A DNA stretch of 52,563 nucleotides from a virus (lineage: Duplodnaviria; Caudoviricetes): positions 1-52,563 of the IMG/VR virus record IMGVR_UViG_3300030098_003463; one strand, 5' to 3'. The translations under genes were made by a program, and so were the position numbers. The notes under the pieces are model-generated. The model ran no database searches, had not been told where the DNA came from, and worked only from the letters and a program-made list of their open reading frames with translations. Within the stretch, counting starts at the first letter, position 1. Each line of letters starts with the position of its first letter. Of the stretch, positions 2,054 through 49,825 are shown piece by piece.

Positions 2054-3634
2054 TTATGCTGCCGTGTTAGCGGTTGTATCGTCTACGGTATACCAAATTT
2101 GATAGCCAACCAAGCTTACAGTTGAAGATCCAGTTATTCTAAAACCAGCGGTTAACGCTGTCCTGTTGCATCCCCACATTTTTCTGTCATTGCCTCCACC
2201 GGGATAACGCAATGCAGTGTCGTATTGATGCCCTTCATCGTATTGTAAATCAGTTCCAAGCTCCATTAGTTTTGTTCTTGAACCACGTATGCCTTCATCT
2301 CGTATAAGTTGCAGCGTAATAGACTGCGGTCCATCCCCTACATCTCTATAAAACAAAACTACATTGTGTATAGTTTTTTCTACACCGGGAAATCCTAAAT
2401 CATTAGGGGCAGTTTCTATTTCCCATTGAATAGCAGTGCCGTCATCGTCTGTGCCTGTATTTGATTTGTACATAAAACCACTACTGTGACCACCCAATAG
2501 ATCATATTCTATTCCACTGTCAAAAAAATGACTAATATAATTTATTTTTGTTGTTTCGTGTTTGTCTATAGAAATATCCCCGTTCTCCCAATCCCATGAT
2601 AAAATTAAATCATGCCCTGTAGTATTGCCAGTCGAAGACATTAACACACGAACTTGATGTTCTTTTTCTCTAATAGAAGAAACAGAATACTGAAGACGGT
2701 CCATATTAAACGTATCTTGAAAATCTATGTTTTTAGTAACAATAGAAAATTTTCCATCTGGAGTTACTACATACGCACCTTCTCTGGCAATGCCAAAAAG
2801 AAACTCAGGTCTTGCAACCATAGATGTTTTAGATACTGGATGAAACCCTTTTAAATTTCCTACTTCTTCATCTGGAACATATTCAATAAGCCCAGAATTG
2901 TATACTAATCTGCCGGGGTAAATTCCATCTGCTTTGGCTATCCACAATTTTCCCCAATTATCTATTCCTCCAATTATAGGCGCACTATTTTCTCCACCAA
3001 TTTCATACCGATTATTTGATGGATAACGGGAAATGTCGCCTGTAAAATCTTTTGTGTTTACATCAGACCAAAGGATGCGCGTAAGTTTTTTGTTTGATGA
3101 AATTGTTGGCACCAAAACAACTAAAGCATTGCTATGTTCTACAAGCTGTTCTGCTGCAGTAAACAAAGTTGAGTCTGAAGCAAAAGTAAAAGCCGCAGCG
3201 TTTCCTGTGCCAGTATACTTAAAACAATTGTCTTTCCCGTTAGTGCCAACTATAGTGTCTTGAACAAAATCTAATGTAAAATACTCATTGTCATTTCCTG
3301 TCAAAGAAACGCTGCCTGTTATATCAGATCTAGTAGTTCCATCATCTGTATATATTTTGTCAGGAGTGCAAAACAATCTTTTTGTTCCATGTGTTGCAAA
3401 AGTGTTTTCCGTAAACCCCATTACTGGCTCAGATGATGGAATTATAGTCGTGTTGTATTTTTCGTATCCATTTCTAGACGTAGCTAAGTTCTTTTCTGAA
3501 AAGTTAATATTAGAAACAACAATACAATTTTCTGGAGAAAGCTCTGGATGCGGATAAACCAACCGATCTTTAAGTCCTCGCAATCTATAAATAGGACTTT
3601 TTTCTAAAGAAGTTTTACTAAGAGGTTGAGCCAT
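2054..3634 (-). CDS. Tail hub/nozzle (head-closure, P22 gp10 / T7 gp12-like beta-propeller) protein
   Basis: 526 aa, beta-rich, between adaptor-like gene and tail fibre. 'RILWSD' and C-terminal 'EKTIHNVVLFY' segments are typical of podovirus stabilisation proteins. Confidence 0.65.
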   Translation of the reverse strand: MAQPLSKTSLEKSPIYRLRGLKDRLVYPHPELSPENCIVVSNINFSEKNLATSRNGYEKYNTTIIPSSEPVMGFTENTFATHGTKRLFCTPDKIYTDDGTTRSDITGSVSLTGNDNEYFTLDFVQDTIVGTNGKDNCFKYTGTGNAAAFTFASDSTLFTAAEQLVEHSNALVVLVPTISSNKKLTRILWSDVNTKDFTGDISRYPSNNRYEIGGENSAPIIGGIDNWGKLWIAKADGIYPGRLVYNSGLIEYVPDEEVGNLKGFHPVSKTSMVARPEFLFGIAREGAYVVTPDGKFSIVTKNIDFQDTFNMDRLQYSVSSIREKEHQVRVLMSSTGNTTGHDLILSWDWENGDISIDKHETTKINYISHFFDSGIEYDLLGGHSSGFMYKSNTGTDDDGTAIQWEIETAPNDLGFPGVEKTIHNVVLFYRDVGDGPQSITLQLIRDEGIRGSRTKLMELGTDLQYDEGHQYDTALRYPGGGNDRKMWGCNRTALTAGFRITGSSTVSLVGYQIWYTVDDTTANTAA

Positions 3635-4629
3635 TAAGTATTACTCGCATTAGGAATTTTTTCATGCGTACCGCGAGAAATATATCTGTTAGACACATTT
3701 TTAAATTGCCTTGAGCGCACTCCTTTGTGTTGCTTTCTTCCTAAATACGCTTCTTTTCTTAACAAATATTTTTGTCGCGCTGCTGCAGACGCAGACTCTT
3801 TGCCTTTTCCAGCCAACAAAATTGATTCTGGACCAAGCACTAATAAATCGTGATACTCTTCTGGTATTTCAGGCCAATCATCATCATTAATAAGCGGTGG
3901 TTTTTTAGCTAAACATCTTATAACATACGTCATTGCCGTATCGGGAATGTAATCAAACTCCCACCATTGATAAGAAGGCGACTTGCCATAGTAAGGTGGA
4001 ATTACGGCTAACGTATTGTCAGATACATCTTTAACTGTTACGTATCCAGAGAACTCAGCACTACTAGCATTAGAAAGAACAAGTCTTCGTATGCCTATAC
4101 CATTAGACCCTGCATCAAAACTGTTAGAAGACTCAACTTCAGTTGTTCCATTTATTTCAATTGACTCTCTGGTATCTACGCCAGAAGACATCCCGTTAAC
4201 AATAATATTAAAATTACCACCAGAAACATCAGAGGTGGACGATGAAACTACTGATATTTTTCCCGTTGTCACTGGTTGTTTTTGCACTCCATACTCACCA
4301 AACCAATACGCAGTAAGTGGAGTACCTGACTCTGAAAGGCCAGCGCGATTACGGTCAAATTCGTGTGGTCCCCTTAAAGGAATAGACCTATCGTTTGTGT
4401 CGTCTTCAATATTTAACAATTGAGATACATATATAGGCATTCCATACTTAGAAATACCAGAAACAGTGGTAAGAGTAAACTCTCGCCTTTCTAAATCACT
4501 GTCTCCTTCTGCGAGAATTTCTTTGTATGTAAAATTAATTTCGCGCTTTGCCATCATTTGAAAATCATCGCCATCTTCTTCAGAAGCGATTAAATTCAAA
4601 TGAGTATATAAGTCTTTAAATGTAGGCAT
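3634..4629 (-). CDS. Head-tail adaptor (gatekeeper)-like protein
   Basis: MPTFKDL...INFTYKEI N-terminus and 'DDDWPEIPEEYHDLLV' C-terminal motif are typical of phage adaptor proteins; synteny. Confidence 0.65.
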   Translation of the reverse strand: MPTFKDLYTHLNLIASEEDGDDFQMMAKREINFTYKEILAEGDSDLERREFTLTTVSGISKYGMPIYVSQLLNIEDDTNDRSIPLRGPHEFDRNRAGLSESGTPLTAYWFGEYGVQKQPVTTGKISVVSSSTSDVSGGNFNIIVNGMSSGVDTRESIEINGTTEVESSNSFDAGSNGIGIRRLVLSNASSAEFSGYVTVKDVSDNTLAVIPPYYGKSPSYQWWEFDYIPDTAMTYVIRCLAKKPPLINDDDWPEIPEEYHDLLVLGPESILLAGKGKESASAAARQKYLLRKEAYLGRKQHKGVRSRQFKNVSNRYISRGTHEKIPNASNT

Positions 4630-4636
4630 TCGGCAA

Positions 4637-5488
4637 TTACTTTTTCTTAGATTTAATGCTGCCTTTAGAGTCTTTTGATTCTATTTCTTTAATAGCCTTT
4701 TCTTCTTGCGCTAACATTATTTTTTCTTCAGCTAATTCCGCTTCAGTCATTGGCTCTGGAATATCTGGAGCATCCATATCAATCCAAGCCTTCATTTGCT
4801 CTGGCGTATTGCTTTTTAACATTTCTTGCATAACAGACTGAGCATCTACCATGTTGCCATTGTTGATAGCAACTTTTGATGGATCATTTGAAACTACGCC
4901 TGTTTCATCTAAACGATTCATTAGCTTCCCAAAAAATTGCTCCATAGAACTGAACATTTCAGCTTGTTCCATGTTCTTTTGCCGCTCATACGTTTCTGCA
5001 AGCTTACGCCTTGCTTCTGGACCATTGGTTAATTTTACCCATCCAAGCCTGAAACACCACTCCGTGTAACGTGGAAGTTGAAGCTCCATTGTTTCTTCTA
5101 GCATTTCTGCTTCTTCTTCTTTAATAACCCTGCCATTAGCCATGTCAATAGCAACAGTAGACTCAGCGGTTCCAACAAAGTGCATAATTAATCCATCGTC
5201 TTCAGAAACGCCAACAACATCATCATCTAACAAACGCTCTTCCATTCCTAATATAGCTACTTTAGGATGAGCAACTACAGTAGTTTCCCACTCTTTATGG
5301 GAAGTATCAGACAAGTCTGGAGACTGTGCTTCATATTTACGATAAACTATTTTTGACTTATCTGACTTTGACAAAGGGAGGACAACGCCATCGTCCAAGC
5401 TTGAACGACCAGCGCGAACATCTTCCTCTATTTTTTTGGTCAACGTATTGTCAATGCTAACAATGGGCTTAGATGAGGGACTCAGCAT
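4637..5488 (-). CDS. Hypothetical acidic protein
   Basis: 283-aa ORF with AAGGAG RBS, in the late operon. Confidence 0.7.
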   Translation of the reverse strand: MLSPSSKPIVSIDNTLTKKIEEDVRAGRSSLDDGVVLPLSKSDKSKIVYRKYEAQSPDLSDTSHKEWETTVVAHPKVAILGMEERLLDDDVVGVSEDDGLIMHFVGTAESTVAIDMANGRVIKEEEAEMLEETMELQLPRYTEWCFRLGWVKLTNGPEARRKLAETYERQKNMEQAEMFSSMEQFFGKLMNRLDETGVVSNDPSKVAINNGNMVDAQSVMQEMLKSNTPEQMKAWIDMDAPDIPEPMTEAELAEEKIMLAQEEKAIKEIESKDSKGSIKSKKK

Positions 5489-5499
5489 GATACGCTCCT

Positions 5500-5802
5500 T
5501 TAATTTCCGCTAATGGTTATTTGGCAATCTGCACTGGAAGATGCAATTGCACCTTCTGCTTTGTTGCCCATTCTACATGCTAAACTTAATCCAGAAAAAT
5601 GGAATGATGTTCCTTCTACGCTAACGTCAATTTTGCTTTCCCATACAATAGCCGTTCCATCTTTTACGGTTATTATAGAGTCAGTATCTACATGTCCAGA
5701 CACAGCAGTAACAACGTAAAACCTGTTTTCTTCTGCTGCTTTAGTTGCAGTAGCACCTGAATCTGTACCTGATTTTGTCACGCTCCAAAATGAATCCATC
5801 AT
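5500..5802 (-). CDS. Small beta-rich virion structural protein (putative)
   Basis: 100 aa, GGAG RBS, Ser/Thr/Gly-rich. Confidence 0.55.
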   Translation of the reverse strand: MMDSFWSVTKSGTDSGATATKAAEENRFYVVTAVSGHVDTDSIITVKDGTAIVWESKIDVSVEGTSFHFSGLSLACRMGNKAEGAIASSSADCQITISGN

Positions 5803-5828
5803 AATCTCCGTTAAAATACTGCAATTAT

Positions 5829-5892
5829 AAAAAGAGGTGGACCAATAAGACCCTCAAGGAAAGAGTTAAGCCCAAACTTATCAGCCCACCCC
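5829..5892 (-). terminator. Terminator-like hairpin with large anti-RBS loop
   Basis: 16-bp stem with G-U pairs on the minus strand (5877-5892 / 5834-5849), 27-nt loop, U5 tail. Confidence 0.7.
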
Positions 5893-5896
5893 AACT

Positions 5897-6841
5897 TTAT
5901 GCTGCCACATTAAAATCATCTAAAATACGTTGCATCCGTTTGTGATACGTATGGCCTGATCTAACTTTTTCATGCCCAGATTGAGCTATCTTTTCTCGCT
6001 CTATAGGATTATCCAAATAATATTGGCTCTTGTTAACAAGATCCTCTTTGGTTTCGTATCCTATAAAATGAGTTCCATCTTCAAATCCAAGATCGTCAAT
6101 GCCTTCTACGTTTGTATTAGTAAGAAGACAAGTTCCAGTAGACAAGATTTCAAAAAATCGCATGTTTAAATCATTGCGAATGCTAATATTAAAACCTAAT
6201 CTTCCTCTAATAATTCGCACTGCCATGTCTTCAAAAAAACACTGCCACGCTAACCAAGAATTTGGAAAGTGCTTAAAAGCATAGTCTAACCAATCAATTC
6301 TATTATTAGATTCGTTAGTGCCATCTCCTTCATTAAGAAAACCAACAAACGACAAGTCGTATTGTTTGTCTAAGCCTTTTCCCCAAGTATGATTGTCTTT
6401 GTTTTTGTGCGCCATCATTTCAGAAAGATTAGGATGTGCCATTGGATTGCAAGCTAATGGCAACCAATAAACATTTTTAATCCCATCTTTTTTCATTTTT
6501 ACTACGCCTTCTTTTTGAGCGCAGTAAACTTTATCAAATTGCCGCGCTTTCCACAGCCTGTAATCATACCCCAAATGAGTGTCTATTGCCCAATATGCAG
6601 AAGGACCGGGACATTCCCAAGTTAAATCATCTCTGCCGTCATCTACATAAATATACAACTCTTTTTCAGGAAGCTTACCTTCAGGTCGCCACCTGTCTAC
6701 TTTATTACCCCAATTTAATTGATGTTTGACTGAATTAAAAGCTAAAGTAGCAGTGCCGTTATTGCGAATGTCGCTATTATAAACAAAAGAAATTCTTGAG
6801 TCGCTCACGACAACACCTCTTTTGTTTTTAATGTTCGACAT
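5897..6841 (-). CDS. Glycosyltransferase, GT-B (CgeB/YkvP-like)
   Basis: 'WLPLACNP', 'YDLSFVG', 'LNMRFFEILSTGTCLLT' and 'EREKIAQSGHEKVRSGHTYHKRM' motifs. Confidence 0.85.
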   Translation of the reverse strand: MSNIKNKRGVVVSDSRISFVYNSDIRNNGTATLAFNSVKHQLNWGNKVDRWRPEGKLPEKELYIYVDDGRDDLTWECPGPSAYWAIDTHLGYDYRLWKARQFDKVYCAQKEGVVKMKKDGIKNVYWLPLACNPMAHPNLSEMMAHKNKDNHTWGKGLDKQYDLSFVGFLNEGDGTNESNNRIDWLDYAFKHFPNSWLAWQCFFEDMAVRIIRGRLGFNISIRNDLNMRFFEILSTGTCLLTNTNVEGIDDLGFEDGTHFIGYETKEDLVNKSQYYLDNPIEREKIAQSGHEKVRSGHTYHKRMQRILDDFNVAA

Positions 6842-8082
6842 TTAAGTGCAATGGTTCCGTGTATGTTTTCAATTAATTCTTCTACCCAAAAATCTTGCGA
6901 CTCCAACAAGGCTCTGGCTGAATCTGGCGTATAAGCATGGACATGAGTGTAGTCTATAAGCATTGTAGGCAAATACTCATGGTTTGGCATGGTTAACAAC
7001 AGCGTTCCAGAGGGACGCAATACTCGTTTCCACTCTGTTAGAGCTTTATATGGATCAACTAAATGCTCTAAAAGATGCGGTGCCATTATGTAGTCAATAC
7101 TATTGTTTTGAACAGGCAAATCGGAAGCATCGGCAGTAGTGTTTGGGTCTGCTTCTTCGTATTTGCGTCCTCCAGCCCCCCTCTCGCCAGTTTTAGCGCA
7201 ATCAATACCTATAGCCTCGTACGCACCTCCTTTATGACCACAGCCCAAATTAAGCCCTTTCTTGCCTTCAAGAGACTCAAGATGACTATCTAACCATTCT
7301 TCTTCCTGTAGTCCGCTGTCAATACGCTTAGTGCCAGATCCATAAGGTTGCCATCCCATCTGGAAACACCGATACCATTTTTTAACACCATGCTTGCGTA
7401 TAATGGCATTGTTGGTGGCTTCTTGATGTTGTTTTGAATCCCAATAGTTTTTATGAACTCTTTGTCCTGTTTGTTGTCCTATGTGATGCAAGTAAGCAGA
7501 CCTGTCTGCAATTAAAACAAAACCTTCCTCTTGCATTCTAATGGACGAATCTAAATCATCGCCACCCGGCAACGATTCATCTAAGCCACCAATTTTTTTA
7601 AGCAATTCTGTGCGAACAACCATACAAAAACCAATAAGTAAACTTGTTTCTAATTCAACTGGAAGGTTAATATTAAACAAGTTTTGGTTGCCAGAAACAA
7701 AATTTGAACATGGACCAACTGCTCCTACCTCTGGCCTATTGAAATGACGAATTAATGTGCGCCAAAACTCATTAGACTTTGGTGGAAACACAACGTCATC
7801 ATTCATCATGCAAAAATAAGGCGTGTTGGTTTTGAATAGGCCAATATTAATTGCGCCCATCCACTTCATATTGCTTCCCGGCTGAATAACTTCAATGTTG
7901 TCTACTTCAATAGATTTTACTAAAGAGCAAATATTGTCTTGCGACTCTATGCTTGGATCATTGTTAATGATCATTATGCTAAGTGGGTATTCTGTATTTG
8001 CCACAAGAGAATAAAGACACCATTGCAACTGCTGGTAATTTTGATACGTAGGAATACAGACTGTAAGAAGTGGGCTAGTCAT
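6805..8082 (-). CDS. GT2-family glycosyltransferase fused to a SAM-dependent methyltransferase
   Basis: N-terminal 'VCIPTY..NDDV..GFCMVVR..IGGLDE..DDLD'. C-terminal 'LNLGCG..DASDLP..HLLEHL..EWKRVLRPSG'. Confidence 0.88.
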   Translation of the reverse strand: MTSPLLTVCIPTYQNYQQLQWCLYSLVANTEYPLSIMIINNDPSIESQDNICSLVKSIEVDNIEVIQPGSNMKWMGAINIGLFKTNTPYFCMMNDDVVFPPKSNEFWRTLIRHFNRPEVGAVGPCSNFVSGNQNLFNINLPVELETSLLIGFCMVVRTELLKKIGGLDESLPGGDDLDSSIRMQEEGFVLIADRSAYLHHIGQQTGQRVHKNYWDSKQHQEATNNAIIRKHGVKKWYRCFQMGWQPYGSGTKRIDSGLQEEEWLDSHLESLEGKKGLNLGCGHKGGAYEAIGIDCAKTGERGAGGRKYEEADPNTTADASDLPVQNNSIDYIMAPHLLEHLVDPYKALTEWKRVLRPSGTLLLTMPNHEYLPTMLIDYTHVHAYTPDSARALLESQDFWVEELIENIHGTIALKCRTLKTKEVLS

Positions 8083-8927
8083 GCGATTGCCTCCTTCTTT
8101 AGTCCATTATCTATTAAGTTTTCAAATACGTGAGGATTTAACTCTTTAAATGCCTCGTAGTATTCTTCGCTAATCCAGTCTTCTCCCCATTTTTTGTGGC
8201 GAGTTTTTGTTGAAGTATCAACGTATCGTTGAATGCCATATTGATGGCACTTAGTGCAAAAGAAAAAGTCTTCTCCTGCTCCAGTTGATTCAAACCAAGG
8301 CTGTGGCATTTGGCGAAATACATTCATATCGCACATAAAAACGCCAGTGCCAAATGCTAACGAACCTTCTACGTCAGCATTAGTAATTAGTTTGTCTTTT
8401 GGATAGTCTAAGACAAACTCACTGCTCATCATTGGTTTCCCAGACGTAGAATCTACAGATTCTTTGATCGTCATTATTACAGGATTGTATGGTTCTCTAG
8501 CCGTAAATGCTAATGCCGCTACTACAGGAACTTGGTGTCGCCACAATCTAAGAAACAAGCTGTGATCAAACATCATATCGTCATCCCACATTAAGCAGTA
8601 GTCAGCGTTCCATGCTAATGACGATTCAATAATCATTTCTCTCGCTTTTCCCGGCAACGAACAACGAGTGTAATCTAAAAGTCCAAGCTCTAAAATTCCA
8701 AGATTGTCCAAATCTTCTTTGGTTGGCTCTGCGCCCAACTCTTCTGGACTATCAGGCGACAGCTTGGGCAAATCGTAGGTTAGCATTTGTTCACCTACGG
8801 CATTGTACATAATCGTTCTTTGCCGCAATTCGCCCAAGTAAGTCATAAAGTCCATAAATCGTGCAAAGCAAGCTGTGTCTGGGCCGTTATACCAAGGCAT
8901 ACCTATAACTAGTCTCATTTTATCCAC
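8079..8927 (-). CDS. GT-A fold glycosyltransferase-like protein
   Basis: 'DYCLMWDDDM' DxD motif, 'GTGVFMCD', 'PWF...GEDFFFC'. Confidence 0.75.
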   Translation of the reverse strand: MDKMRLVIGMPWYNGPDTACFARFMDFMTYLGELRQRTIMYNAVGEQMLTYDLPKLSPDSPEELGAEPTKEDLDNLGILELGLLDYTRCSLPGKAREMIIESSLAWNADYCLMWDDDMMFDHSLFLRLWRHQVPVVAALAFTAREPYNPVIMTIKESVDSTSGKPMMSSEFVLDYPKDKLITNADVEGSLAFGTGVFMCDMNVFRQMPQPWFESTGAGEDFFFCTKCHQYGIQRYVDTSTKTRHKKWGEDWISEEYYEAFKELNPHVFENLIDNGLKKEAIA

Positions 8928-9118
8928 CCCATTTTCATTTTAAAAAACTCCCACAGGGTGGCATTCATAGCCATAGTATGCTTGTGTCCAACGTGTTTTT
9001 GTTTCACCTCAGAAGGTGAATCGCTCCAGAACAACGCATTGCACTGGCAACGATACAACCTTCTGGATGAAACAATTGGATCGTGGGGCTTAAACCACGA
9101 TTTAAATTTACTAAACAT
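8915..9118 (-). CDS. Small Cys/His (possible Zn-binding) protein
   Basis: 67 aa, CxC...HxxH, strong AAGGAG RBS. Confidence 0.6.
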   Translation of the reverse strand: MFSKFKSWFKPHDPIVSSRRLYRCQCNALFWSDSPSEVKQKHVGHKHTMAMNATLWEFFKMKMGWIK

Positions 9119-9150
9119 AAAATCTCCTTGAGGGTTTTACTTGGACTTAT

Positions 9151-9937: not shown

Positions 9938-10933
9938 TTAAGAGATGCCAGCCAAAACACCAAGCTTGCGCCTGTTGTTGACTGCCAAATTGCCCTGAAA
10001 CAATATTTGAGCAACAAGGGCATCTTGGTCGATGGGCTTCTGGAAGCCTTCATCAGTCATAGCAAAATTAGCTTTGCCATGAATGAACATCATAATATGG
10101 GCAGAGTTTAGCATATACATTGTGCCGCTAGTGCAATAGTCATCAAAGACAACTTCTGCACCCTTAAACTTCAATGTATCAATGCCAGCGTCAGCACCAC
10201 CAGAAGGATTCTGTTCGTAACGTACGCGAGGCGAAATCAAGGCTTCCAAAGCTTCATGTACGGTCTGAGTTGTTACAATATAATCAGGCGTAGAAGAAAC
10301 ACCTTCTGAACCCTTAGAACAACTATTGTAAACAGTACGCATATTAGAAACTAAATTAGAAGCAGCAGCCCCCACGCTAGCCACTGAACGATTGCGCCAC
10401 GAAGTGTTTGTAGCAGGATCAATCGAAGCATACGTGGTTGTAGCAGGAGTCTGGTCAACAGCAGCAGTTAAGCCCGTAAGCTGCTTGCTGCCAGAACCAG
10501 TGCCATCGCTAAAAATACCAGTAGCAACGCCATCACCCAAGGAAAGTTCAGCTTGTCGAATCTTTTCTTGCATAATGTCGTTGATCTGAGCCGGACCTTG
10601 GTTTTGACGCAAAGTTAGACCGTCGATGGCAATGCCAACTGCGCCCTGCTTCCACGTATACCATGCCGTAGTCTGCCCAATAGAAGGAGTTATGCTTAGT
10701 GGATCAAGCCCATAATACCACTTAAAAGTGTTATTTTTTCCAGTCATAACTGGAATGCGAATGCGCTCACCACCTTGAAGAACCTTGATACGATTGCCAG
10801 ACTTAAACCAAGATAGCGTCTTAGCCATTTCATAGACGTTATCCTGAATGGCACCAGACGAAAGAATTTCGTCCAACGTCATCGTAAGCAAAGGTCCATA
10901 TGTGCGACTTAGGGTCGATTCTCCCGTAGCCAT
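9938..10933 (-). CDS. Major capsid protein (HK97 fold)
   Basis: 331 aa; 'GGERIRIPV', 'FSDGTG...QLTGL', 'LKFKGAEVVFD', 'GNLAVNNRR'; follows scaffold. Confidence 0.88.
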   Translation of the reverse strand: MATGESTLSRTYGPLLTMTLDEILSSGAIQDNVYEMAKTLSWFKSGNRIKVLQGGERIRIPVMTGKNNTFKWYYGLDPLSITPSIGQTTAWYTWKQGAVGIAIDGLTLRQNQGPAQINDIMQEKIRQAELSLGDGVATGIFSDGTGSGSKQLTGLTAAVDQTPATTTYASIDPATNTSWRNRSVASVGAAASNLVSNMRTVYNSCSKGSEGVSSTPDYIVTTQTVHEALEALISPRVRYEQNPSGGADAGIDTLKFKGAEVVFDDYCTSGTMYMLNSAHIMMFIHGKANFAMTDEGFQKPIDQDALVAQILFQGNLAVNNRRKLGVLAGIS

Positions 10934-10961
10934 AATGGAATTGCTCCCGTTCTATTAATTG

Positions 10962-11864
10962 TTAACTGTTAAAAGTCTTCCAAGACTTAAGGACTGCTTT
11001 CGATACAATATCGCTAAGGTCATCGTCCTCTTGTCGTATAGATGGTTCTTGCGCTGGAGCGTTAGAAGAACGATTGTGAGAACCAGAAGCTCTCGCTACT
11101 CTTTGCGCTCTATTGCCATTGCCACCTTCAGAAAGACCCCTTTCATACTCGCTTTGCATCATTTTATCGTGATTATAAAGGATGTAAAGTTGATTAGGCG
11201 TAATGCCCTCATCTGGCGAACGCATAGATTTAAAAAGGTCACGAACTCCTTCGTATATTTCAGGATTCCAAACAAATTTTTCTCCATCCATACTTCCAAA
11301 GTCCTCTCCCCATTTATCTACGCCTTCCGTAATTGCGCCCATAGTCATTTCCATAGAGCGTTTATTACGTTCTTCAGCATCCAATTCATCTTTAGATACA
11401 AGGCCAAGTTCTTCTACGTATGCGTCAAACATATCACGCTGTTGCTTGGGCATACGTTGCAACATTTGTTGCCGACGAACATCTGCAGGATCTGGCTTTT
11501 CAGGTTCTTTAACCGCATCTTCTAATTTAGCAAGTCGCTGTTCAAGTTCCCTATTTGCATTACCCTGCTGACTTATTGTTCTTTGAAACTGTTTAACCAG
11601 TTCCGCACCACCGGGAAGAGCGTCAGCATTCTTTTCCAGATAGTCCAGCAACTCTTGTCGGCTAGGAGTTTTCTCCGCACCATTAGAATGTTCTGAGGGT
11701 CCGTTGCCGGGATCAGGGTCATTCGATGCGTTACCGTTGCCGGGGGTAGTGCCATTCCCCTTTGCTGCTACTACGGAGTCAATTGCTTCTTTGTTCATGG
11801 CAGACTGAAGCTGCTCAAGCTCATCAAAAGCATTGGACGTATTAGCAGACGCGATTTCAGTCAT
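10962..11864 (-). CDS. Capsid scaffolding protein (putative)
   Basis: Acidic, helical/coiled, immediately upstream of the MCP. Confidence 0.65.
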   Translation of the reverse strand: MTEIASANTSNAFDELEQLQSAMNKEAIDSVVAAKGNGTTPGNGNASNDPDPGNGPSEHSNGAEKTPSRQELLDYLEKNADALPGGAELVKQFQRTISQQGNANRELEQRLAKLEDAVKEPEKPDPADVRRQQMLQRMPKQQRDMFDAYVEELGLVSKDELDAEERNKRSMEMTMGAITEGVDKWGEDFGSMDGEKFVWNPEIYEGVRDLFKSMRSPDEGITPNQLYILYNHDKMMQSEYERGLSEGGNGNRAQRVARASGSHNRSSNAPAQEPSIRQEDDDLSDIVSKAVLKSWKTFNS

Positions 11865-11883
11865 TTCTTGTTCTCCTTGAGGG

Positions 11884-12342
11884 TTACTTTATATTGGGCA
11901 AATCAGACGCACGTTTAACTTCTTCTACAGATTGTCCATCTTTGTTTTCTGTGCTTACTACAAAATTATGTTTGTCTTCTTCTCTTTTTTCTTCTTCTCT
12001 TCTATAGTCGTCTATGCTGCGCCCTGAAAGTTTTTCCACGGGCTTTATATTTTCAGGAGCAGAAGAATCATAATTTCTTGCCCCATGAACTTTGTCGCCA
12101 GCTTCAATAACATTTAAGGCTTTCATTACCTGTTGTTTATGTCTGCGCCCATGAATATCTACGTTTAGAGACTCATCGTAATACGACTCAAAAGGTTGAA
12201 ATCCTTTAATGGCACTGACAGGAAACTGCAAAGATGCAATGCTGCCGCACTGACATTTAATGTTTTGTTTTTTGTCTGCAAATGAAACTACAACTTCAAT
12301 AGTTTTATTGCAGGAATTGCATTTGTAATCATATAGAGGCAT
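11884..12342 (-). CDS. FmdB-like zinc-ribbon protein
   Basis: MPLYDYKCNSC...CQCG motif, common in phage head modules. Confidence 0.8.
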   Translation of the reverse strand: MPLYDYKCNSCNKTIEVVVSFADKKQNIKCQCGSIASLQFPVSAIKGFQPFESYYDESLNVDIHGRRHKQQVMKALNVIEAGDKVHGARNYDSSAPENIKPVEKLSGRSIDDYRREEEKREEDKHNFVVSTENKDGQSVEEVKRASDLPNIK

Positions 12343-12346
12343 TAAT

Positions 12347-12820
12347 TTATCCTATGGGTAAGACTAAGGCACTCATGTCATTGTCAGCAGACTGCTGCAT
12401 AGAAGGACCACCACCAAAACCAGCACGTTCTTCTGCGCGATCACCATTAGGAAGAATGCCAGACTTTTCCATTTTTTGCAAAAGTCGCGGCATTACTTGA
12501 AGTTCTTCCATTGTAAATCCATTTAAAAGATCTGCTGGTATGCCAAAATTCTTTGTAATTTTGCTTTGCGCTGCATCCATAGCTGCTCTTGATTGATCTG
12601 CAGTGTCCATTCCTTGCGGTTTTGGTGTGCCAGCAGGAGCCATTCGTGATGGCGCAGCCATTGGCTTGCGTCTACCAGCAGGAGCTTTAGGCATTGGCCT
12701 CGCAGGTTTAGCTCGTTTAGCAGCAGGAGCCGCAGCAGGTCTTTGTGCAGAACGAGCAGCAGGGGCTGCAGGAGCAGATTGCCCACGTGCAGGTACTTGT
12801 ATCTTACGGCCATATGCCAT
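12347..12820 (-). CDS. Ala/Pro/Arg-rich hypothetical protein
   Basis: 157-aa ORF translationally coupled to the upstream gene. Confidence 0.65.
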   Translation of the reverse strand: MAYGRKIQVPARGQSAPAAPAARSAQRPAAAPAAKRAKPARPMPKAPAGRRKPMAAPSRMAPAGTPKPQGMDTADQSRAAMDAAQSKITKNFGIPADLLNGFTMEELQVMPRLLQKMEKSGILPNGDRAEERAGFGGGPSMQQSADNDMSALVLPIG

Positions 12821-15012
12821 TATTTAGCTCCAACTCGTAAAGGCCCACGATTTAATGGGCGAGTAGTATATGGTAAAACTTCTACGCTAGACCCAACCTG
12901 CAAATAATTAGCAAGGTCTAATAAATCTTTTTCCATAAAACGCACACAACCATGAGAAACAAAACCTTGATTTTTAAAACCAGTGCCAGTTTCTTTTACG
13001 TCTTTAGCGGCATGAGGTCCATGCAAACCATAGCTATCCCAATCAAGCCCCATCCACACAGGTCCATAGCTGCCTTCTATTTTATCGTAAGAAACTTTAT
13101 TTATAATTTCAGAAGTGCCAGTAGGAGTAAAAAACTTTTTTCCATATCGGGTTCCTGTAGTGTCACCTGTTCCTACTGCGTATTCTTTAATTTTCATTCC
13201 TTGCGAGTCAAACAACTTAGCTATGTTTGTGTTTGGATTTATTTGTATTCGATATGGAGGCTCTGGTTCAGTAGATGCTTGTTCTTCAAAAGATTCGGAA
13301 GTTACAACAATTTGTCCTGTTGGCGATTTCCAATCTGCTCCAATTGCTTCTTGTGTTTTTATCACCATATCAGAAGCGACGGGATTATCTTTTACTCTAG
13401 ACGTATCCGTTAATTTGTCTGCTTTTGACTTAAACGGCAACTCTATAGGCTCTGGATTGTCTACTGGTGCTGGAGTTTTAGGATTAGTTAGTTGATCTAT
13501 AATTACTGGATCTTCTACATCAACCTCTAATTGCGGCGTTTCTTCTGTATCTAGATTTTCTGGTGGAGTGCCTTCAAATCTTTCGGATTCTATCTTTACC
13601 TTAGAATCCGCGTTTTCTTTTTCAGTGTCTGGAGTTGCTAGAAGTACATAGGTTTCATTTGTTTTGGGATCTATCCACATGCTTCTACGGCTAGTTCTTC
13701 CTTGTGCTTCTCCAACGACTTTGGCATACTGCGATCTAGCGTTTGACATAGCCTTATCAACGCCAATTTGAAGATCCCTGCTCTTGCCCTTTCCTACATA
13801 CATACCAGAAGGAGGACTATCAACCCAATTTGGCTTTGGCCCAGATGGATCTACCATCTGGGTTTCACCTTCGTAATCTTTTAGGCTTCGTGCTGGAGGA
13901 ACATCTGTCATATCCACTTCTGATGGCAATTCTTCTTTCTCTGGCTTGTATCTCATGTAAGTAGTGCCATCTTTAGGATCGGTCCAATATTCTTGAGCCG
14001 CAAACGACCCATACCCTTCTGCGCGATTCATTGCCATACTTCTAGCGGTGGAACGAAGTAGCCCCGGCTTACTTTTTCCTACACCGGGATCATTGATCCA
14101 TGCTGGTGGAGCATCCTCATCTTCCCCATCAAACATTCCAGCAACGCTTTTTGCTGCTCCTGCCACTGCCCCTCCCACTTTTCCCAAAAAACTTTTGCCC
14201 TTTTTTTCTGGCTTTCCGATAGAAGATGGCCTACGAATTACCTCTGTTTTTGGTGTTGCTTCTTCTTCCATGTCTACCCATTCGCCTCCTTCTCTACGAA
14301 CAGGCGTTTGAGTAAACTTGTAATCTGAAGGCTCTCCTCTTTTACGTCTATATTCAACCTTTACACTTGTAGCAGTGTCTCCTTCTTTATAGGGATCTAT
14401 GACAGGCGGCAAGTCTTCTTCCATTGGAACAACAGGCGACTTGTATCTTGCACTAGCCTTAGTTTCACGCGCTTTGGTTGAAGAAGCACCGCTAGACATT
14501 GTAGGCCGTCTTTTACTTATTACTTGTTGAGTAGCATCATCCGTATCCCGTCTACGGCTTATAACTGGCTCAGTGGTTGTAGGCTGTCTACGGCTTATAA
14601 CTGGCTTAGTAGTTGTAGGTTGGCTACGACTTATAGCTGGCTCAGTGGTTGTAAGTTGTCTACGGATGGAAGATGGCCTACGAAAATCTCTTTGCCCTTT
14701 AACAACAGCAGGTTTTGTTGTTTCTTCTTCTGTTTCTACTGGTTGTTTTACGGGCGGTTCTGGAGTAGAATCCCATTCTGTCCCTTCCCAAGGGTCAACG
14801 TATTTTTCTGGTTCTTTTGGTGCTACCGTGGTTGGAATAACCCGATTTGTTGTAACTCTTCCACCAGACACAATTTTAGCTGAAACCCCACCATCTTTGT
14901 TGCGATCTATAACCCATTCTTCGCCCTCATCAAGTGTTCCTAAGTTTTTTTCTAACCAAGGAAGTAAACCTTGTAGGTCTTCGTCAGACAAAGAATACGA
15001 CTTAAATCTCAT
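12820..15012 (-). CDS. Low-complexity protein with C-terminal L,D-transpeptidase (YkuD-like) domain
   Basis: 'YAVGTG..TPTG..YGPVWMGL..YGLHG..SHGCVRF..VGSSVEV' = YkuD HxxxSHGC catalytic signature. Confidence 0.85.
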   Translation of the reverse strand: MRFKSYSLSDEDLQGLLPWLEKNLGTLDEGEEWVIDRNKDGGVSAKIVSGGRVTTNRVIPTTVAPKEPEKYVDPWEGTEWDSTPEPPVKQPVETEEETTKPAVVKGQRDFRRPSSIRRQLTTTEPAISRSQPTTTKPVISRRQPTTTEPVISRRRDTDDATQQVISKRRPTMSSGASSTKARETKASARYKSPVVPMEEDLPPVIDPYKEGDTATSVKVEYRRKRGEPSDYKFTQTPVRREGGEWVDMEEEATPKTEVIRRPSSIGKPEKKGKSFLGKVGGAVAGAAKSVAGMFDGEDEDAPPAWINDPGVGKSKPGLLRSTARSMAMNRAEGYGSFAAQEYWTDPKDGTTYMRYKPEKEELPSEVDMTDVPPARSLKDYEGETQMVDPSGPKPNWVDSPPSGMYVGKGKSRDLQIGVDKAMSNARSQYAKVVGEAQGRTSRRSMWIDPKTNETYVLLATPDTEKENADSKVKIESERFEGTPPENLDTEETPQLEVDVEDPVIIDQLTNPKTPAPVDNPEPIELPFKSKADKLTDTSRVKDNPVASDMVIKTQEAIGADWKSPTGQIVVTSESFEEQASTEPEPPYRIQINPNTNIAKLFDSQGMKIKEYAVGTGDTTGTRYGKKFFTPTGTSEIINKVSYDKIEGSYGPVWMGLDWDSYGLHGPHAAKDVKETGTGFKNQGFVSHGCVRFMEKDLLDLANYLQVGSSVEVLPYTTRPLNRGPLRVGAK
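14548..14660 (-). repeat. 3x ~36-nt in-frame tandem repeat (TTT[EK]P[AV]ISRxQP)
   Basis: Directly visible in both DNA and protein. Confidence 0.85.
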
Positions 15013-17573: not shown

Positions 17574-19181
17574 TTAGATGTCTACTAATGCCCAATAATC
17601 TTCGTCTGGCGGTAATTCTAACGGTTGATGATTACCAATGATAGGTGCCTCATTAAATACAAGCTTGCCCCTACTACGGCGTTCTGAGCGGTAAATGATC
17701 TCATCAAACGTATAATTTCGTGGAGTCCACTCTTCTCTGGGAGAAGCAGGGACGCTACCCCCTCTGAGTTTTTCTAATGCTAATCCCAACAAAGAAAAAC
17801 AATCTACTTCATCATCATGTTTAAAAGTTGGAAACTTGATAAGCGTTTCTTGTACGTCAGCAACCCAAAAACGATCTTTGGGAAAAAATACCTTTCCTTC
17901 TTGCGCCCTACCCTGTATTGCTCTAGCGCGAACTGTTTTATCTTTTGAGGGAGTAAACTGTTCCCTAAAACAATAAACGCCTCTTTCTTTCATGCGCTGC
18001 GAAAGGAAAGGGCCAATAGAGTTAAGTATCTGGCCTCGCTCTTCGCACCACATAACTGGCTTCCATTTTACCATGAGATCAATACAAGACTCTATCCACT
18101 CGACAGGCTTTGCTCTTTTTTTCCAGACATCGCAAACATAAATATTTTCTTCTGTGTCTACAGCAAATATTATGTGGACCGTAAAGTCTGACCCTTTACG
18201 TTCAGAGGTAGCGTAGTCAGAGCATCCATAAAATCGCAACTCCGAAATGGGCGGCATATCTATTAGTTCATTGCGCCCATACGTATTAAACCAATCTATC
18301 TGAAAGTAATCACCATGATCTACAGTAGGAGACTGTTGATAGAGAGCTTGAAACTCACGATTCTGAAGAACTGATTCTATTTCTTTTAGTGCGGTAGTGT
18401 CATACCAGTCAGGCCAAAGAGCTTCTCCCGGCATACGGCCTAAAGGATCATCCTCTTTTGCAATAGCTGGTAGGTTTAGCGTTTCCCAAGCAGGAATATT
18501 AGGATCGTCTTCAGCTTGTTTTAACAGTCGCCCTGCAAGGTCATCGTCATGCCAGCGAGTCATAATCACAACAATAGACGCATGGGGCATTAAGCGAGTA
18601 AAGGCAGTAGAGCGATACCAGTTCCAAACCCTTTCCCTTTCCGCAAGGCTGTCTGCTTCTTCTCTATTTTTATGTGGATCGTCTATAAGAAGAATTTTAG
18701 CACCACGACCCGTAGTAGCAGTGCCAATACCTACAGCAAAGTATTCGCCCCTATGCCCTTCAATTTTCCATTTATGAGCGGCAGCAGCGTCAGTAGCAAG
18801 TTCTATCTCTGGAAAAATGCGCTTGTATTCTTCAGAGTCTACAATATTACGTACGTCGCGCCCAAAGTCAGAAGAAAGGTCTTGGCCGTAAGAAGCGGTA
18901 ATAATGGGATCGTCTGGGTGTCGCCCCATATACCAAGCAGGAAAACGGCGAGAAGCTAGCTCGCTTTTAGTGTGACGAGGTGGCATCGTAATCATTAACC
19001 TACGGCACTCGCCTCTTTCTACGCGCTCTAAAGCACTTGCAATTAATTCGTGATGAGCAGCTTGCTCAAAGTCAGGAAAAGTAGTTTTAGTAAAAGACAG
19101 AAGTTTGTTGGCGGCTTCGCGTCTTTTAAGAATTAATTGTGCAGCTTTTACCGCATCAAGTTGTTTCTGCGTATTGCTCAA
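17574..19181 (-). CDS. terL: Terminase large subunit
   Basis: 'MPPRHTKS' Walker A-like, 'LLIDDP' Walker B, 'MTRWHDDDLAG', nuclease 'SDFT...HDDEVD'. Confidence 0.95.
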   Translation of the reverse strand: MSNTQKQLDAVKAAQLILKRREAANKLLSFTKTTFPDFEQAAHHELIASALERVERGECRRLMITMPPRHTKSELASRRFPAWYMGRHPDDPIITASYGQDLSSDFGRDVRNIVDSEEYKRIFPEIELATDAAAAHKWKIEGHRGEYFAVGIGTATTGRGAKILLIDDPHKNREEADSLAERERVWNWYRSTAFTRLMPHASIVVIMTRWHDDDLAGRLLKQAEDDPNIPAWETLNLPAIAKEDDPLGRMPGEALWPDWYDTTALKEIESVLQNREFQALYQQSPTVDHGDYFQIDWFNTYGRNELIDMPPISELRFYGCSDYATSERKGSDFTVHIIFAVDTEENIYVCDVWKKRAKPVEWIESCIDLMVKWKPVMWCEERGQILNSIGPFLSQRMKERGVYCFREQFTPSKDKTVRARAIQGRAQEGKVFFPKDRFWVADVQETLIKFPTFKHDDEVDCFSLLGLALEKLRGGSVPASPREEWTPRNYTFDEIIYRSERRSRGKLVFNEAPIIGNHQPLELPPDEDYWALVDI

Positions 19182-24198: not shown

Positions 24199-24405
24199 AT
24201 GTTTAAATCTTTGTTTCAGATAGATCTAGTACAGACTGCCGTCAGAGACAGCAAGGGACGGTTTACGGGTGAGTATAAGATGGACTTTGTTTTCTTGTTA
24301 ACAAGAAACTGGAACATCGCTCCTAACAACAGAGGATTGTTCAAAGCACAGCTTGTCTTGTGTCCTCTGATATTGTGGTTAACTTATTATCTCGCAGGAG
24401 GTTAG
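24199..24405 (+). CDS. Small protein with RDSKGRF motif and C-terminal hydrophobic segment
   Basis: AAAGGA RBS. Confidence 0.6.
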   Translation: MFKSLFQIDLVQTAVRDSKGRFTGEYKMDFVFLLTRNWNIAPNNRGLFKAQLVLCPLILWLTYYLAGG

Positions 24406-35450: not shown

Positions 35451-36157
35451 TAAAAACAATACCTGCCATAATTTTATTTTTGCTTTATAGCAATGCAAAA
35501 GCTGACAGTGGCATTGCTATGTCTTATCGTTCTATTCCTGCTTACATTACCGAAAACAATGACATAAGCTACAGAACTATTGAAACTGCTATGTTTACTT
35601 GGTATATGGATGACACGTTTAGAGGAAGAGACAAACCCAAAAGCAAACCCATTAAATGGTTAGGTTGGCTTGACACGCGCAGGGGTGCGGGATACACCGT
35701 GGCGTTAAATTTTTTGTGGGGAAATTTAGATAGGACGTTAAACGTCTACGCCGCAGATCTTTTGATTGGCAAAAGGTTTTTTGTATTGCCGCACCTCTGC
35801 CATATTTACTGGAAAATTGGCCCATCTTTACTGAGCGAAAACTGGTATACTAAATCAAGGTCTGTGTATAGATTGGTTTCATCTAAAGAAAATGTATTGT
35901 TTGGCATGGTAGCTAACATAGGATTACAGCTACAAATATTCAAAGGCATTAAAGTTTTTACAGAAGCTGAATTTAGAAACTATGGACCTCTTACTAGTTA
36001 TAGATCAGCCAACAAAATAAATCTTGTTAACAAGATACCGTTTACTGAACGAGAAATTTCAGATCATTACAATGAATATGACCGTCACCAAGGAGTAACT
36101 GCTGCCAAAAAATTAATGCGCGAAAGTTTAAGGTTTGGTATTAGGTTTACTTTTTAG
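35447..36157 (+). CDS. Outer-membrane beta-barrel protein (putative)
   Basis: Signal peptide (..SNAKA), amphipathic strands, C-terminal 'RFGIRFTF' beta-signal. Confidence 0.65.
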   Translation: MIKTIPAIILFLLYSNAKADSGIAMSYRSIPAYITENNDISYRTIETAMFTWYMDDTFRGRDKPKSKPIKWLGWLDTRRGAGYTVALNFLWGNLDRTLNVYAADLLIGKRFFVLPHLCHIYWKIGPSLLSENWYTKSRSVYRLVSSKENVLFGMVANIGLQLQIFKGIKVFTEAEFRNYGPLTSYRSANKINLVNKIPFTEREISDHYNEYDRHQGVTAAKKLMRESLRFGIRFTF

Positions 36158-44100: not shown

Positions 44101-45099
44101 TTAACCTTCTGAATTTACACGTTCAGATAATTCTTCCATGTTTGTATCTACGTAATGCGACCTTTTAAATGTTCCCGATTCAAAGTCTTGATCAAAATAT
44201 AATACACCTTCGTCATCTACAATCATAGAATCTGGAAAATATTCATTTGTTAAGTCTAGTGCTATCATATCGTCTACTGAAAAATCTAACATCAAACCCA
44301 CTGCTAGTCGATCTAATCGACTTTTGTTTTTATCGTTTAGTTCTTCATAGGGCTTGCTTATAAGTGTGTTAAAATGGTCTAATTCATTCCAACGCCCTAA
44401 AGCATAAATTTCTTCAGCTTGTTGATCTAAACTTGAAAATTCTGGACTTAAAATTCCTTGTTGATAATCCTCGTCATATTCTGCAAAGTTTGTCATTAAT
44501 TCTTGAACAGCTTTACCAGCACCTGATGATTCTCCACTTGGAACATCCGTTGCTTCTATCAACGGTTCTGTAGGAATCATTCTTCTTCCTGTTCTTTGTA
44601 TAAATTCATCAAGAGGTTCTTTGTAAACGCCAAGTGTATCAGTGGCTTTAGCCCCTGCTGCATACCATATAGCCGCGCCTTGTTCAAAATTAAAATATAG
44701 ACCGGGAGCAGATCCTAAGTTTAATGGATCTCCATCTTTGTCTACTGGATTAGGAGGGTAGAAATTAAGCCCATACTGTCTTGGAACCGTTATTCCTTTG
44801 CTTTTCCATTGATCGGCTCTATCTCCACTAAAAAACTCCCATGTTTTGTAGGCAGCAACTGCAGTGCCAACAGCAACTGCAACTGGTCCAACATAAGGAG
44901 CTATCTTTGTTCCAAGGGCCGAAAGAGTTTCATTGCCTTCTAAAACATTTTGCACATAACTTTTGTTGTCATCCCACTGATACATTGAGTCTACGCCAAA
45001 CAGTTTTCCTTTCCATTCTAAATCTGGAATGTCACCCGGCAATGGTATCTCATCCAATGGTATCTCATCCGTTACGTCGCTAAAAAAAAAAATCCCCAA
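44101..45099 (-). CDS. Protein with TM-like segment; probable +1-frame extension of the upstream ORF
   Basis: TTG start without RBS just before a T11 run; overlaps the upstream stop. Confidence 0.6.
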   Translation of the reverse strand: MGIFFFSDVTDEIPLDEIPLPGDIPDLEWKGKLFGVDSMYQWDDNKSYVQNVLEGNETLSALGTKIAPYVGPVAVAVGTAVAAYKTWEFFSGDRADQWKSKGITVPRQYGLNFYPPNPVDKDGDPLNLGSAPGLYFNFEQGAAIWYAAGAKATDTLGVYKEPLDEFIQRTGRRMIPTEPLIEATDVPSGESSGAGKAVQELMTNFAEYDEDYQQGILSPEFSSLDQQAEEIYALGRWNELDHFNTLISKPYEELNDKNKSRLDRLAVGLMLDFSVDDMIALDLTNEYFPDSMIVDDEGVLYFDQDFESGTFKRSHYVDTNMEELSERVNSEG

Positions 45100-49381: not shown

Positions 49382-49795
49382 TTACTCTTCGTCAGAAATT
49401 GAATCGCCTAAAAGCAGTCTCATTCGTCCGTACACTAAAGTATTCCATTGCTCTGAAACACAAGATAAAATTAGAGCTTTCTTTTTTTCTCCAATTTTTA
49501 CTGTATTATATGAATCCCCTTCTTCTGTTCTTATTTGTTCTGCTAATGAAAACTTTAACCACTTATCTTCTTCTGTTGTTTCTTCTGTATCCTTGCTGGT
49601 AGTTAAAGAAAACAACACTGCATGTCCTGCAGTTAAATCTACTGTATCAACTAGCTCTTCTTCCGTAAGTTTTTTTGGGTCTTTAGCTTCGTCAATTATT
49701 TTTTGAATATTTGGCTTATGAACTTTAGTGACTATAACTTCCCCATTAAAGTTCAATAATTTTTTGTTAAAATCTACTAAAATTGCTTCACCCAT
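49382..49795 (-). CDS. Hypothetical protein
   Basis: ACCCTCAAGGAG RBS. Confidence 0.7.
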   Translation of the reverse strand: MGEAILVDFNKKLLNFNGEVIVTKVHKPNIQKIIDEAKDPKKLTEEELVDTVDLTAGHAVLFSLTTSKDTEETTEEDKWLKFSLAEQIRTEEGDSYNTVKIGEKKKALILSCVSEQWNTLVYGRMRLLLGDSISDEE

Positions 49796-49825
49796 AATGC
49801 TTCTCCTTGAGGGTTTTAAGTTAAA

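Follow-up and report, generated by a model that had tools for sequence, protein, structure and literature searches.

The window, by which we mean the whole stretch of DNA analysed here, is one complete IMG/VR virus record, linear, 52,563 bp long, with an estimated completeness of 99% and a G+C content of 41.6%. Neither tRNA genes nor Rfam families at gathering score were found across the whole window. Its late genes lie on the minus strand, and among them are those encoding a pre-neck-appendage-like protein (50897-52546), the terminase large subunit (17574-19181), the major head protein (9938-10933) and, by a weak match, an SU10-type adaptor (3634-4629). A scaffold-like ORF of 300 aa (10962-11864, minus) is located directly before the major head gene, and an ORF of 137 aa is found on the same strand at 49382-49795. 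In the head-module region, a 730-aa protein (12820-15012, minus) has a YkuD L,D-transpeptidase domain at its C-terminus (E 7.5e-14), which is unusual in a virion-module gene. With regard to the record ends, the ORFs at 1-2045 and 50897-52563 (minus) run off both of them and would be out of frame if the record were circularised, with 4 bases between the two frames; taking into account that they are not joinable in frame, the window ends are probably not a simple circular permutation point. No prophage relatives of the window were found among genome contigs, and a blastn search of positions 5400-6400 against named phage records gave no match.

Between the head genes and the adaptor lies a glycosyltransferase cassette made up of four overlapping minus-strand ORFs (5897-9118). 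It starts with p67 (8915-9118), which is followed by p282 (8079-8927), by a protein combining a GT2 glycosyltransferase and a methyltransferase (6805-8082; family matches Glycos_transf_2 and Methyltransf_11) and by a last glycosyltransferase (GT, 5897-6841; family match Glyco_trans_1_2). The consecutive overlaps are of 13, 4 and 37 nt, and the order of the cassette genes is the same in relatives. Since the ORFs overlap, translation of the cassette is probably coupled from the ribosome-binding site (RBS) of p67. After the cassette come a hairpin and, directly downstream of it, p100 (5500-5802, minus), a conserved gene of 100 aa whose GGAG is located at 5809-5806.

The hairpin (5834-5892, minus) thus lies between the last GT gene and p100, and its stem begins 4 nt past the GT stop codon. 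On the minus-strand RNA, positions 5892-5877 pair with 5849-5834 in an outer stem of 16 bp, several of them G.U, which encloses a loop of 27 nt (5876-5850); the original prediction of a 16-bp hairpin with a 27-nt loop on the transcript strand of its targets (5892-5834) therefore holds. Its MFE is -28.8 kcal/mol, with a z of -2.4, a stability matched by 3 of 200 shuffles. The 3' side of the loop is formed by the anti-RBS segment UUUCCUUGAGGGU (5850-5862, minus), part of which is placed by RNAfold in a weak inner helix of 6 bp, with UCCUU remaining apical. The stem is followed by the U-run UUUUUAU (5827-5833, minus), which in the window resembles that of an intrinsic terminator.

The sequence to which this segment is complementary, ACCCTCAAGGAGA, occurs exactly at 9123-9135, 11872-11884 and 49802-49814, always on the minus strand, the full shared string being the 14-mer AACCCTCAAGGAGA (3 copies, minus strand, starts 9123, 11872 and 49802). 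Each copy ends 5-8 nt upstream of the ATG of an ORF (8915-9118, 10962-11864 and 49382-49795, respectively). Thus, the motif AACCCUCAAGGAGA constitutes, as had been claimed, the RBS of three minus-strand genes, namely p67 (9123-9136), which is the best partner of the loop, the scaffold-like ORF 10962-11864 (11872-11885) and ORF 49382-49795 (49802-49815). The sole further match with at most 2 mismatches is ACCCTCAAGGAAA, at 5850-5862 on the plus strand, and so the single copy in opposite orientation does lie inside the hairpin loop. The four matches at this threshold compare with 0.81 expected, and four were reached in only 1 of 100 shuffles, which separates the motif from chance frequency. Pairing of UUUCCUUGAGGGU in the loop with ACCCUCAAGGAGA in the RBS comprises 12 Watson-Crick pairs and 1 G.U; the total of 13 pairs given originally is right, and its division into 11 Watson-Crick and 2 further pairs has to be corrected. 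As for the names given to the target genes, 'scaffold' is backed by the position before the major head gene and not by any family match, and no support was obtained for describing the gene at 49382-49795 as 'post-lysis', its neighbouring genes being devoid of family matches.

Relatives were gathered from three scans, using the major head protein and GT in viral contigs and GT in metagenome contigs (80 of 101 relatives were kept in this last scan), and the sequence 3' of the GT stop codon was read in every locus covering it. A long hairpin was found at the same place in 16 distinct sequences (GT identity 65-100%). Distinct relatives at a GT identity of at most 62% lack the hairpin, and in them the stop codon runs into the next gene or into unrelated sequence. 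A single branch of the GT tree (support 94/91) separates the hairpin-bearing rows from the rest, which indicates that the hairpin arose or was lost once. In all 16 relatives the stem measures 16-19 bp and sits tightly between two ORFs, the distance from the GT stop codon to the stem being 3-6 nt (16/16); from the end of the stem to the next GGAG there are 6-11 nt in the other 15 relatives (GGAA in L042 and L041) and 24 nt in the window. Loop and interior span 27-35 nt and are structured. CUUGAGGG is present at the 3' side of the loop in all 16, and TTGAGGG (UUGAGGG in the RNA) is the only invariant 7-base block among all 16 hairpins.

The stems of the two main groups of relatives share almost no sequence, yet both fold. 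Pairs were counted separately for each group, given that in a joint MAFFT alignment of the 16 the group stems are 2 columns out of register, and L037, L042 and L041, also out of register, were left out of these counts. Pairing in the outer stem of the 7 group-1 sequences amounts to 98.2%; two of its pairs have changed on both sides, and exchanges between G.U and G-C are numerous. The 6 sequences of group 2 form three stacked helices in which pairing is complete (100%) and 5 pairs differ on both sides, a result reached by 0 of 500 shuffles; the inner helix of this group has 7 covarying bp and includes part of the anti-RBS. Considering its conserved place and the fact that rebuilt stems stay paired, the hairpin is, on this comparative evidence, a selected RNA structure.

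Other peculiarities of these loci can be mentioned. The 5' strand of the lower stem in group 2 (L019, L021, L022, L023, L040 and L057; 10931-11010 in L023) reads GGAGGGUGAUC, which we take to be nearly complementary to the 16S 3' tail over the full Shine-Dalgarno length; GAUCCCUCC closes this strand, with a symmetric UGAU/UGAU internal loop in between. Some members of group 2 contain a tiny ORF within the hairpin (ATG...TGA in L023, L040 and L022); a coding role was discarded, as L019 and L057 have no ATG and in L021 the ORF is in another frame. In a distant clade whose head protein is 67% identical (L009, positions 10290-11995, equal to L010, L012 and L013), the cassette is replaced by other genes; this set, flanked by the homologues of p95 and p100, contains another glycosyltransferase-like ORF and has an ordinary short-looped terminator after its first gene, with neither the RBS motif nor the hairpin.

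The strand on which the element operates was also considered. In all 16 hairpins the coding strand gives a more stable fold than its reverse complement, with a mean difference of 10.2 kcal/mol and with 1-9 G.U pairs per hairpin, which fits an RNA element and not a DNA cruciform. The duplexes between loop and RBS behave in the same manner: their interior non-Watson-Crick positions are nearly all G.U on the coding strand, no A.C mismatches were found inside them, and a single transversion mismatch is present, at the p283 site of L057. When G.U is allowed, Watson-Crick runs lengthen by a mean of 3.0 nt, as against 0.5 nt when A.C is allowed; of 27 site/genome pairs, which are not phylogenetically independent, 20 have a longer run under the G.U rule, 2 an equal one and 5 a shorter one.

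The RBSs complementary to the loop form a recognisable class, of the CCUCAAGGAG type preceded by a C-run (that is, C-run + UCAAGGAG), which is used by several genes in hairpin-bearing genomes. The RBS of p67 carries the motif in every hairpin genome covering the region (10 analysed, plus L022), and that of the scaffold-like gene does so in 8 of 8 covered genomes, although in degenerate form in L023, L035 and L021. At p283, the gene two ORFs downstream, the motif is present in group 2, L037, L042 and L041 and absent in group 1. The third gene of the window, ORF 49382-49795, was comparable in one relative, G001, which keeps the 14-mer while both flanks have diverged; in G004 (94% complete), no exact match to the motif pattern was found at the scaffold or third site. 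The class is absent from the eight hairpin-less genomes examined (L043, L028, L029, L044, L049, L055, L053 and L009), although in 7 of them the cassette is complete and at its usual place. It has to be noted that, the hairpin clade being single in origin, this co-occurrence of hairpin and motif counts as one evolutionary event. An extended Shine-Dalgarno role for ACCCUC was rejected on the general form of the 16S 3' tail, with which pairing would need AGA-like bases 5' of AAGGAG; those found there are not of this kind.

The original prediction expected loop and RBSs to change together in related phages, and compensatory covariation was indeed found. Within each own genome, the contiguous complement between loop and RBS is of 11-17 nt for p67 (10/10), 9-15 nt for the scaffold-like gene (8/8) and 13-15 nt for p283 in the 8 of 14 in which the motif is present, whereas eight control RBSs reach 4-10 nt. 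C-run length in the RBS and G-run length in the loop match, being 3/3 in group 1, 4/4 in L021 and 5/5-6 in L019, L022, L023 and L040. The duplex with p67 is extended differently in different genomes, through GGAGUAA/UUAUUCC in L016, GGAGAGUGA/UCACUUUCC in L035, GAGGCCGA/UCGGCUUC in L023 and GGAGCAA/UUGCUCC in L037. In a per-position table of 8 genomes (the duplexes of L036 and L034 being taken instead from the run comparison), position +5 is A-U, U-A or C-G and is paired in 8/8, position +6 shows three pair types and is paired in 7/8, and position +2 is G-C or A-U, so that loop and RBS have undergone double changes at +2, +5 and +6. These positions belong to the spacer and not to the Shine-Dalgarno core; their partners in the hairpin are apical-loop bases that are not needed for the hairpin itself.

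Cognate and non-cognate combinations were compared by a permutation test that is blind to the tree, the p67 set consisting of the 10 genomes having both the hairpin and the p67 RBS. For p67, the run is 13.65 nt in cognate and 10.76 nt in non-cognate pairs, and the dG -27.2 and -21.7 kcal/mol, values reached in both cases by 0 of 20000 permutations. For the scaffold-like gene, the run is 11.12 vs 10.25 nt (p 0.023) and the dG -21.9 vs -19.9 kcal/mol (p 0.013); for p283, 9.93 vs 9.11 nt (p 0.001) and -20.0 vs -18.2 kcal/mol (p 0.0003). Independent drift from a complementary ancestor predicts equal values for cognate and non-cognate pairs; the cognate excess, in statistics that are tree-blind, therefore points to the co-evolution of loop and RBS. 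The signal is strongest for p67, the leader of the glycosyltransferase cassette, and is modest for the scaffold-like gene. Some observations do not follow this trend. In 2 of the 10 genomes (L036 and L034), the p67 duplex is of only 11 bp and ends at a G.A mismatch, and for the p67 RBS of L036 two foreign loops, those of the window and L035, are better partners (13.5 and 14.5) than its own (11); in L023, the complement at the scaffold site is only 9 nt. Moreover, a whole-genome scan of duplex energies with the 27-nt loop did not single out the three RBSs, site 49802 being first on the minus strand, 9123 lower, among unrelated sites, and 11872 outside the top 25, because long imperfect duplexes elsewhere score alike.

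With the anatomy, conservation, RNA-strand specificity and loop/RBS co-evolution of the hairpin established here, we propose, with a probability of roughly 0.6, that it acts as an antisense riboregulator of translation in its own operon, either in cis or as a stable fragment. Such a reading, already put forward in the original prediction, is supported by the covariation of loop and RBSs and above all by that involving the cassette leader. The hairpin would be a structured element on the late minus-strand transcript, presenting in the 3' half of its loop an antisense to a special class of RBSs. Its main partner would be the RBS of p67, the entry point of the four overlapping ORFs of the cassette that the hairpin itself closes, with weaker partners at the scaffold-like gene and, according to lineage, at p283 or ORF 49382-49795. 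A pairing of 11-17 bp would cover the Shine-Dalgarno sequence and most of the spacer, blocking the binding of the 30S subunit, and the translation of the cassette and the other targets would be lowered relative to that of the neighbouring structural genes on the same transcript. Given that p67 heads four overlapping ORFs, covering its RBS would throttle the whole cassette. In the cis route, one mRNA would fold back on itself over ~3.2 kb; in the trans route, a nuclease-resistant 3' fragment ending at the hairpin would accumulate. The inner helix that holds part of the anti-RBS would have to open before pairing. The pairing of loop and RBS in infected cells, its repressive effect, its route and the existence of a small RNA are what we infer.

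The same covariation would be expected if the pairing were real and its effect positive or structural, for instance if it protected the RBS regions from an endonuclease, brought the stop codon close to the first RBS or acted as a sponge for an RNA-binding repressor able to recognise the RBS motif. The short distance between stop codon and stem, which obliges terminating ribosomes to open the base of the hairpin in all 16 relatives, could be accommodated here as well. However, pairing across a Shine-Dalgarno sequence is repressive in characterised cases, RNAIII being an example, and family searches of the window genes revealed no candidate for an RNA-binding repressor. A role of this kind is thus considered rather improbable.

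A related proposal, which takes up the distance between stop codon and stem in another way, sees in the hairpin a closed-loop feedback device, gated by translation, that would serve one operon segment. As the stem starts 3-6 nt past the last stop codon of the cassette, ribosomes finishing this gene must melt its base. The melted stem would free the anti-RBS loop, which would then pair in cis with the p67 RBS 3.2 kb upstream, so that production from the last gene would close the entry site on that mRNA copy. If true, this would set a per-mRNA limit on the rounds of translation of catalytic genes placed in a highly expressed structural operon. The proposal is speculative, and we regard it as doubtful.

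It is also unlikely that the hairpin serves mainly as an mRNA-end element, setting the cassette apart from the structural genes downstream of it as a leaky intrinsic terminator, a 3' stabiliser or a processing site of the RNase III type, and that its complementarity to the RBSs has no regulatory meaning. Such an element would agree with a long stem tightly inserted between two ORFs, a few nucleotides past one stop codon and, except for the 24 nt of the window, close to the next GGAG, as well as with the U-run that follows the stem in the window and L016. In these two sequences, the succession of G+C-rich stem and U-tract expected from a terminator is observed (16 bp and then UUUUUAU in the window). 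Nevertheless, the U-tract is absent in group 2, in which the stem is followed by ACTATT, TATACT, AACAAT or TTAAAAAC, and the loop (27 nt in the window, with a longer, structured interior in relatives) is unlike the short one (about 3-8 nt) of a simple terminator; a consensus terminator scan with loops of 3-8 nt reported an inner fragment only and not the full hairpin. Thus, the 'terminator' label of the original prediction applies at most to the window's near relatives and not to the wider clade. An mRNA-end element would furthermore leave unexplained the invariant UUGAGGG in the loop, the co-variation of the loop with a site 3.2 kb away and the confinement of the RBS class to hairpin-bearing genomes. 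A function in ending or processing the mRNA is compatible with the antisense riboregulator, with which it may coexist as a second function.

Finally, it is very unlikely that the element works at the DNA level, as an inverted repeat bounding the cassette (recombination or mobile ends) or as an orientation-independent site for a DNA-binding protein, its copies staying alike by means of the one protein that reads them or of gene conversion: the best-matching pair (9123 and 5850) does flank the cassette in inverted orientation, and sites of one protein would change together too, but the cassette-bearing relatives without hairpin (7/7) keep the cassette in place, so that the repeat does not mark a mobile unit, the other copies (scaffold-like gene, p283 and 49802) are not at cassette borders, each sense copy overlaps the Shine-Dalgarno sequence at a fixed distance from the ATG, nearly every difference between copies is compatible with G.U on the coding strand instead of being symmetric, and the G.U-rich hairpin forms only as coding-strand RNA. 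A mobile cassette with terminal inverted repeats was rejected on the first of these grounds, and the orientation-independent DNA site, raised from the outset as a possible objection, does not explain a strand-specific structure rich in G.U.

Several known regulatory RNAs can be compared with the proposed riboregulator. c4, in the immI operon of P1/P7, and the CI RNA of satellite phage P4 belong to the immunity regions of temperate elements, where an antirepressor or lysogeny genes are under control, are located upstream of their targets and are excised by RNase P. They are structured RNAs from the same operon and strand as those targets, pair through a loop with sites overlapping an RBS and thereby control coupled downstream genes, and from one related phage to another the differences in the regulator are matched by those in the targets. 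The hairpin is likewise encoded in the operon of its targets and on the same strand, its loop is complementary to RBS-overlapping targets of the same transcript, and matched changes between related phages were found in it (double changes; 0/20000 permutations). Unlike c4 and CI, it lies among head, glycosyltransferase and adaptor genes of a late structural operon and not in an immunity region, and it occupies the 3' end of the cassette it would control, with targets both upstream and downstream. An Rfam search by E-value of positions 5700-6000 retrieved only MIR2670 (E 6.1), that is, no homology in sequence or structure to c4/CI. Regulation of Ant expression by the C4 antisense RNA is described in a passage of PMC8201110, which cites Citron and Schuster 1990.

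A second comparison is offered by small RNAs derived from the 3' end of a long operon mRNA, such as SdhX, from the sdh-suc operon (in the corresponding passage of PMC6393394). As far as that passage goes, the likeness resides in a regulator coming from the 3' end of a polycistronic mRNA, with a stable hairpin at its end and acting on the RBS regions of other cistrons. However, the seed of those RNAs is single-stranded and upstream of a short-looped terminator, whereas that of the hairpin is enclosed in a loop that is large and structured; those RNAs require Hfq or ProQ; and the U-tail of the hairpin is not conserved, the element being located between two ORFs and not at the end of an operon. 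The hairpin therefore lacks the single-stranded seed upstream of a short terminator and the conserved U-tail of a 3'UTR-derived small RNA of the Hfq type.

In RNAIII of Staphylococcus aureus, the terminator hairpin's own loop takes part in regulation. According to a section of PMC2837412, hairpin loops of its 3' domain carry pyrimidine-rich anti-Shine-Dalgarno sequences and arrest the translation of several mRNAs; on that account, both RNAs have in common a hairpin loop presenting an anti-Shine-Dalgarno sequence. In contrast, RNAIII is a separate regulatory RNA of a host, with short C-rich loops and loop-loop contacts, and the phage duplex is longer (11-17 bp), specific to an extended RBS motif and encoded within the target operon. 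A parallel from phage T7 is the long-range pairing, inside one polycistronic mRNA, of an RBS with a hairpin region 3' of it. There, as Saito and Richardson are said to have described in 1981, the 3' end of the gene 1.1/1.2 mRNA folds back onto an RBS unless RNase III cuts it. The T7 pairing differs in being a by-product relieved by processing, and we know of no multi-target motif or cross-phage covariation in T7. Thus, the hairpin is not a member of the c4/CI, RNAIII or 3'-end small-RNA families, because it has no Rfam match, does not belong to an immunity region, carries its seed in a large loop and has a U-tail that is not conserved. A keyword search of full texts, non-exhaustive and without supplements, gave no such hairpin in a phage late operon.

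Phage late operons place proteins needed in hundreds of copies beside enzymes needed in few on one transcript, and the ratios among their products are mostly attributed to RBS strength and coupling. If the proposed riboregulator is real, it would represent a dedicated RNA device in a structural operon, reading a private RBS 'address' (C-run + UCAAGGAG) common to chosen genes and co-evolved with the hairpin across a clade of uncultured phages. The same-operon antisense control of P1/P7/P4 immunity would then extend to the dosage of virion genes. A natural, orthogonal and tunable riboregulator/RBS pair would also become available, with variants that evolution has already explored (3, 4 or 5 G:C, along with differing extensions).

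The window contains other repeated strings. Six 14-mers are present in at least 3 copies: AACCCTCAAGGAGA, three of the (GAA)n type and two from one palindrome. A (GAA)n run is found at 49046-49061, inside a 1425-aa ORF (45080-49357). The perfect palindrome TCTTGTTAACAAGA, the only other non-simple 14-mer with three copies in the window, occurs at 6028-6041, 24293-24306 and 36022-36035, two of these extending to the 16-mer ATCTTGTTAACAAGAT, and it may be a protein-binding site. The copy at 6028 is inside the GT gene, where it encodes DLVNK, and it is kept there only in the window, L016 and L018, for which reason its role as a conserved operator or as the promoter of a separate small RNA was rejected. 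Promoter-like sites in the window are no commoner than in shuffles; one of them, at 6008-6036 (minus; TTAACA, a 17 nt spacer and GATAAT, 10/12 matches), overlaps this palindrome ~115 nt upstream of the hairpin and, if active, would give a short transcript ending at the hairpin.
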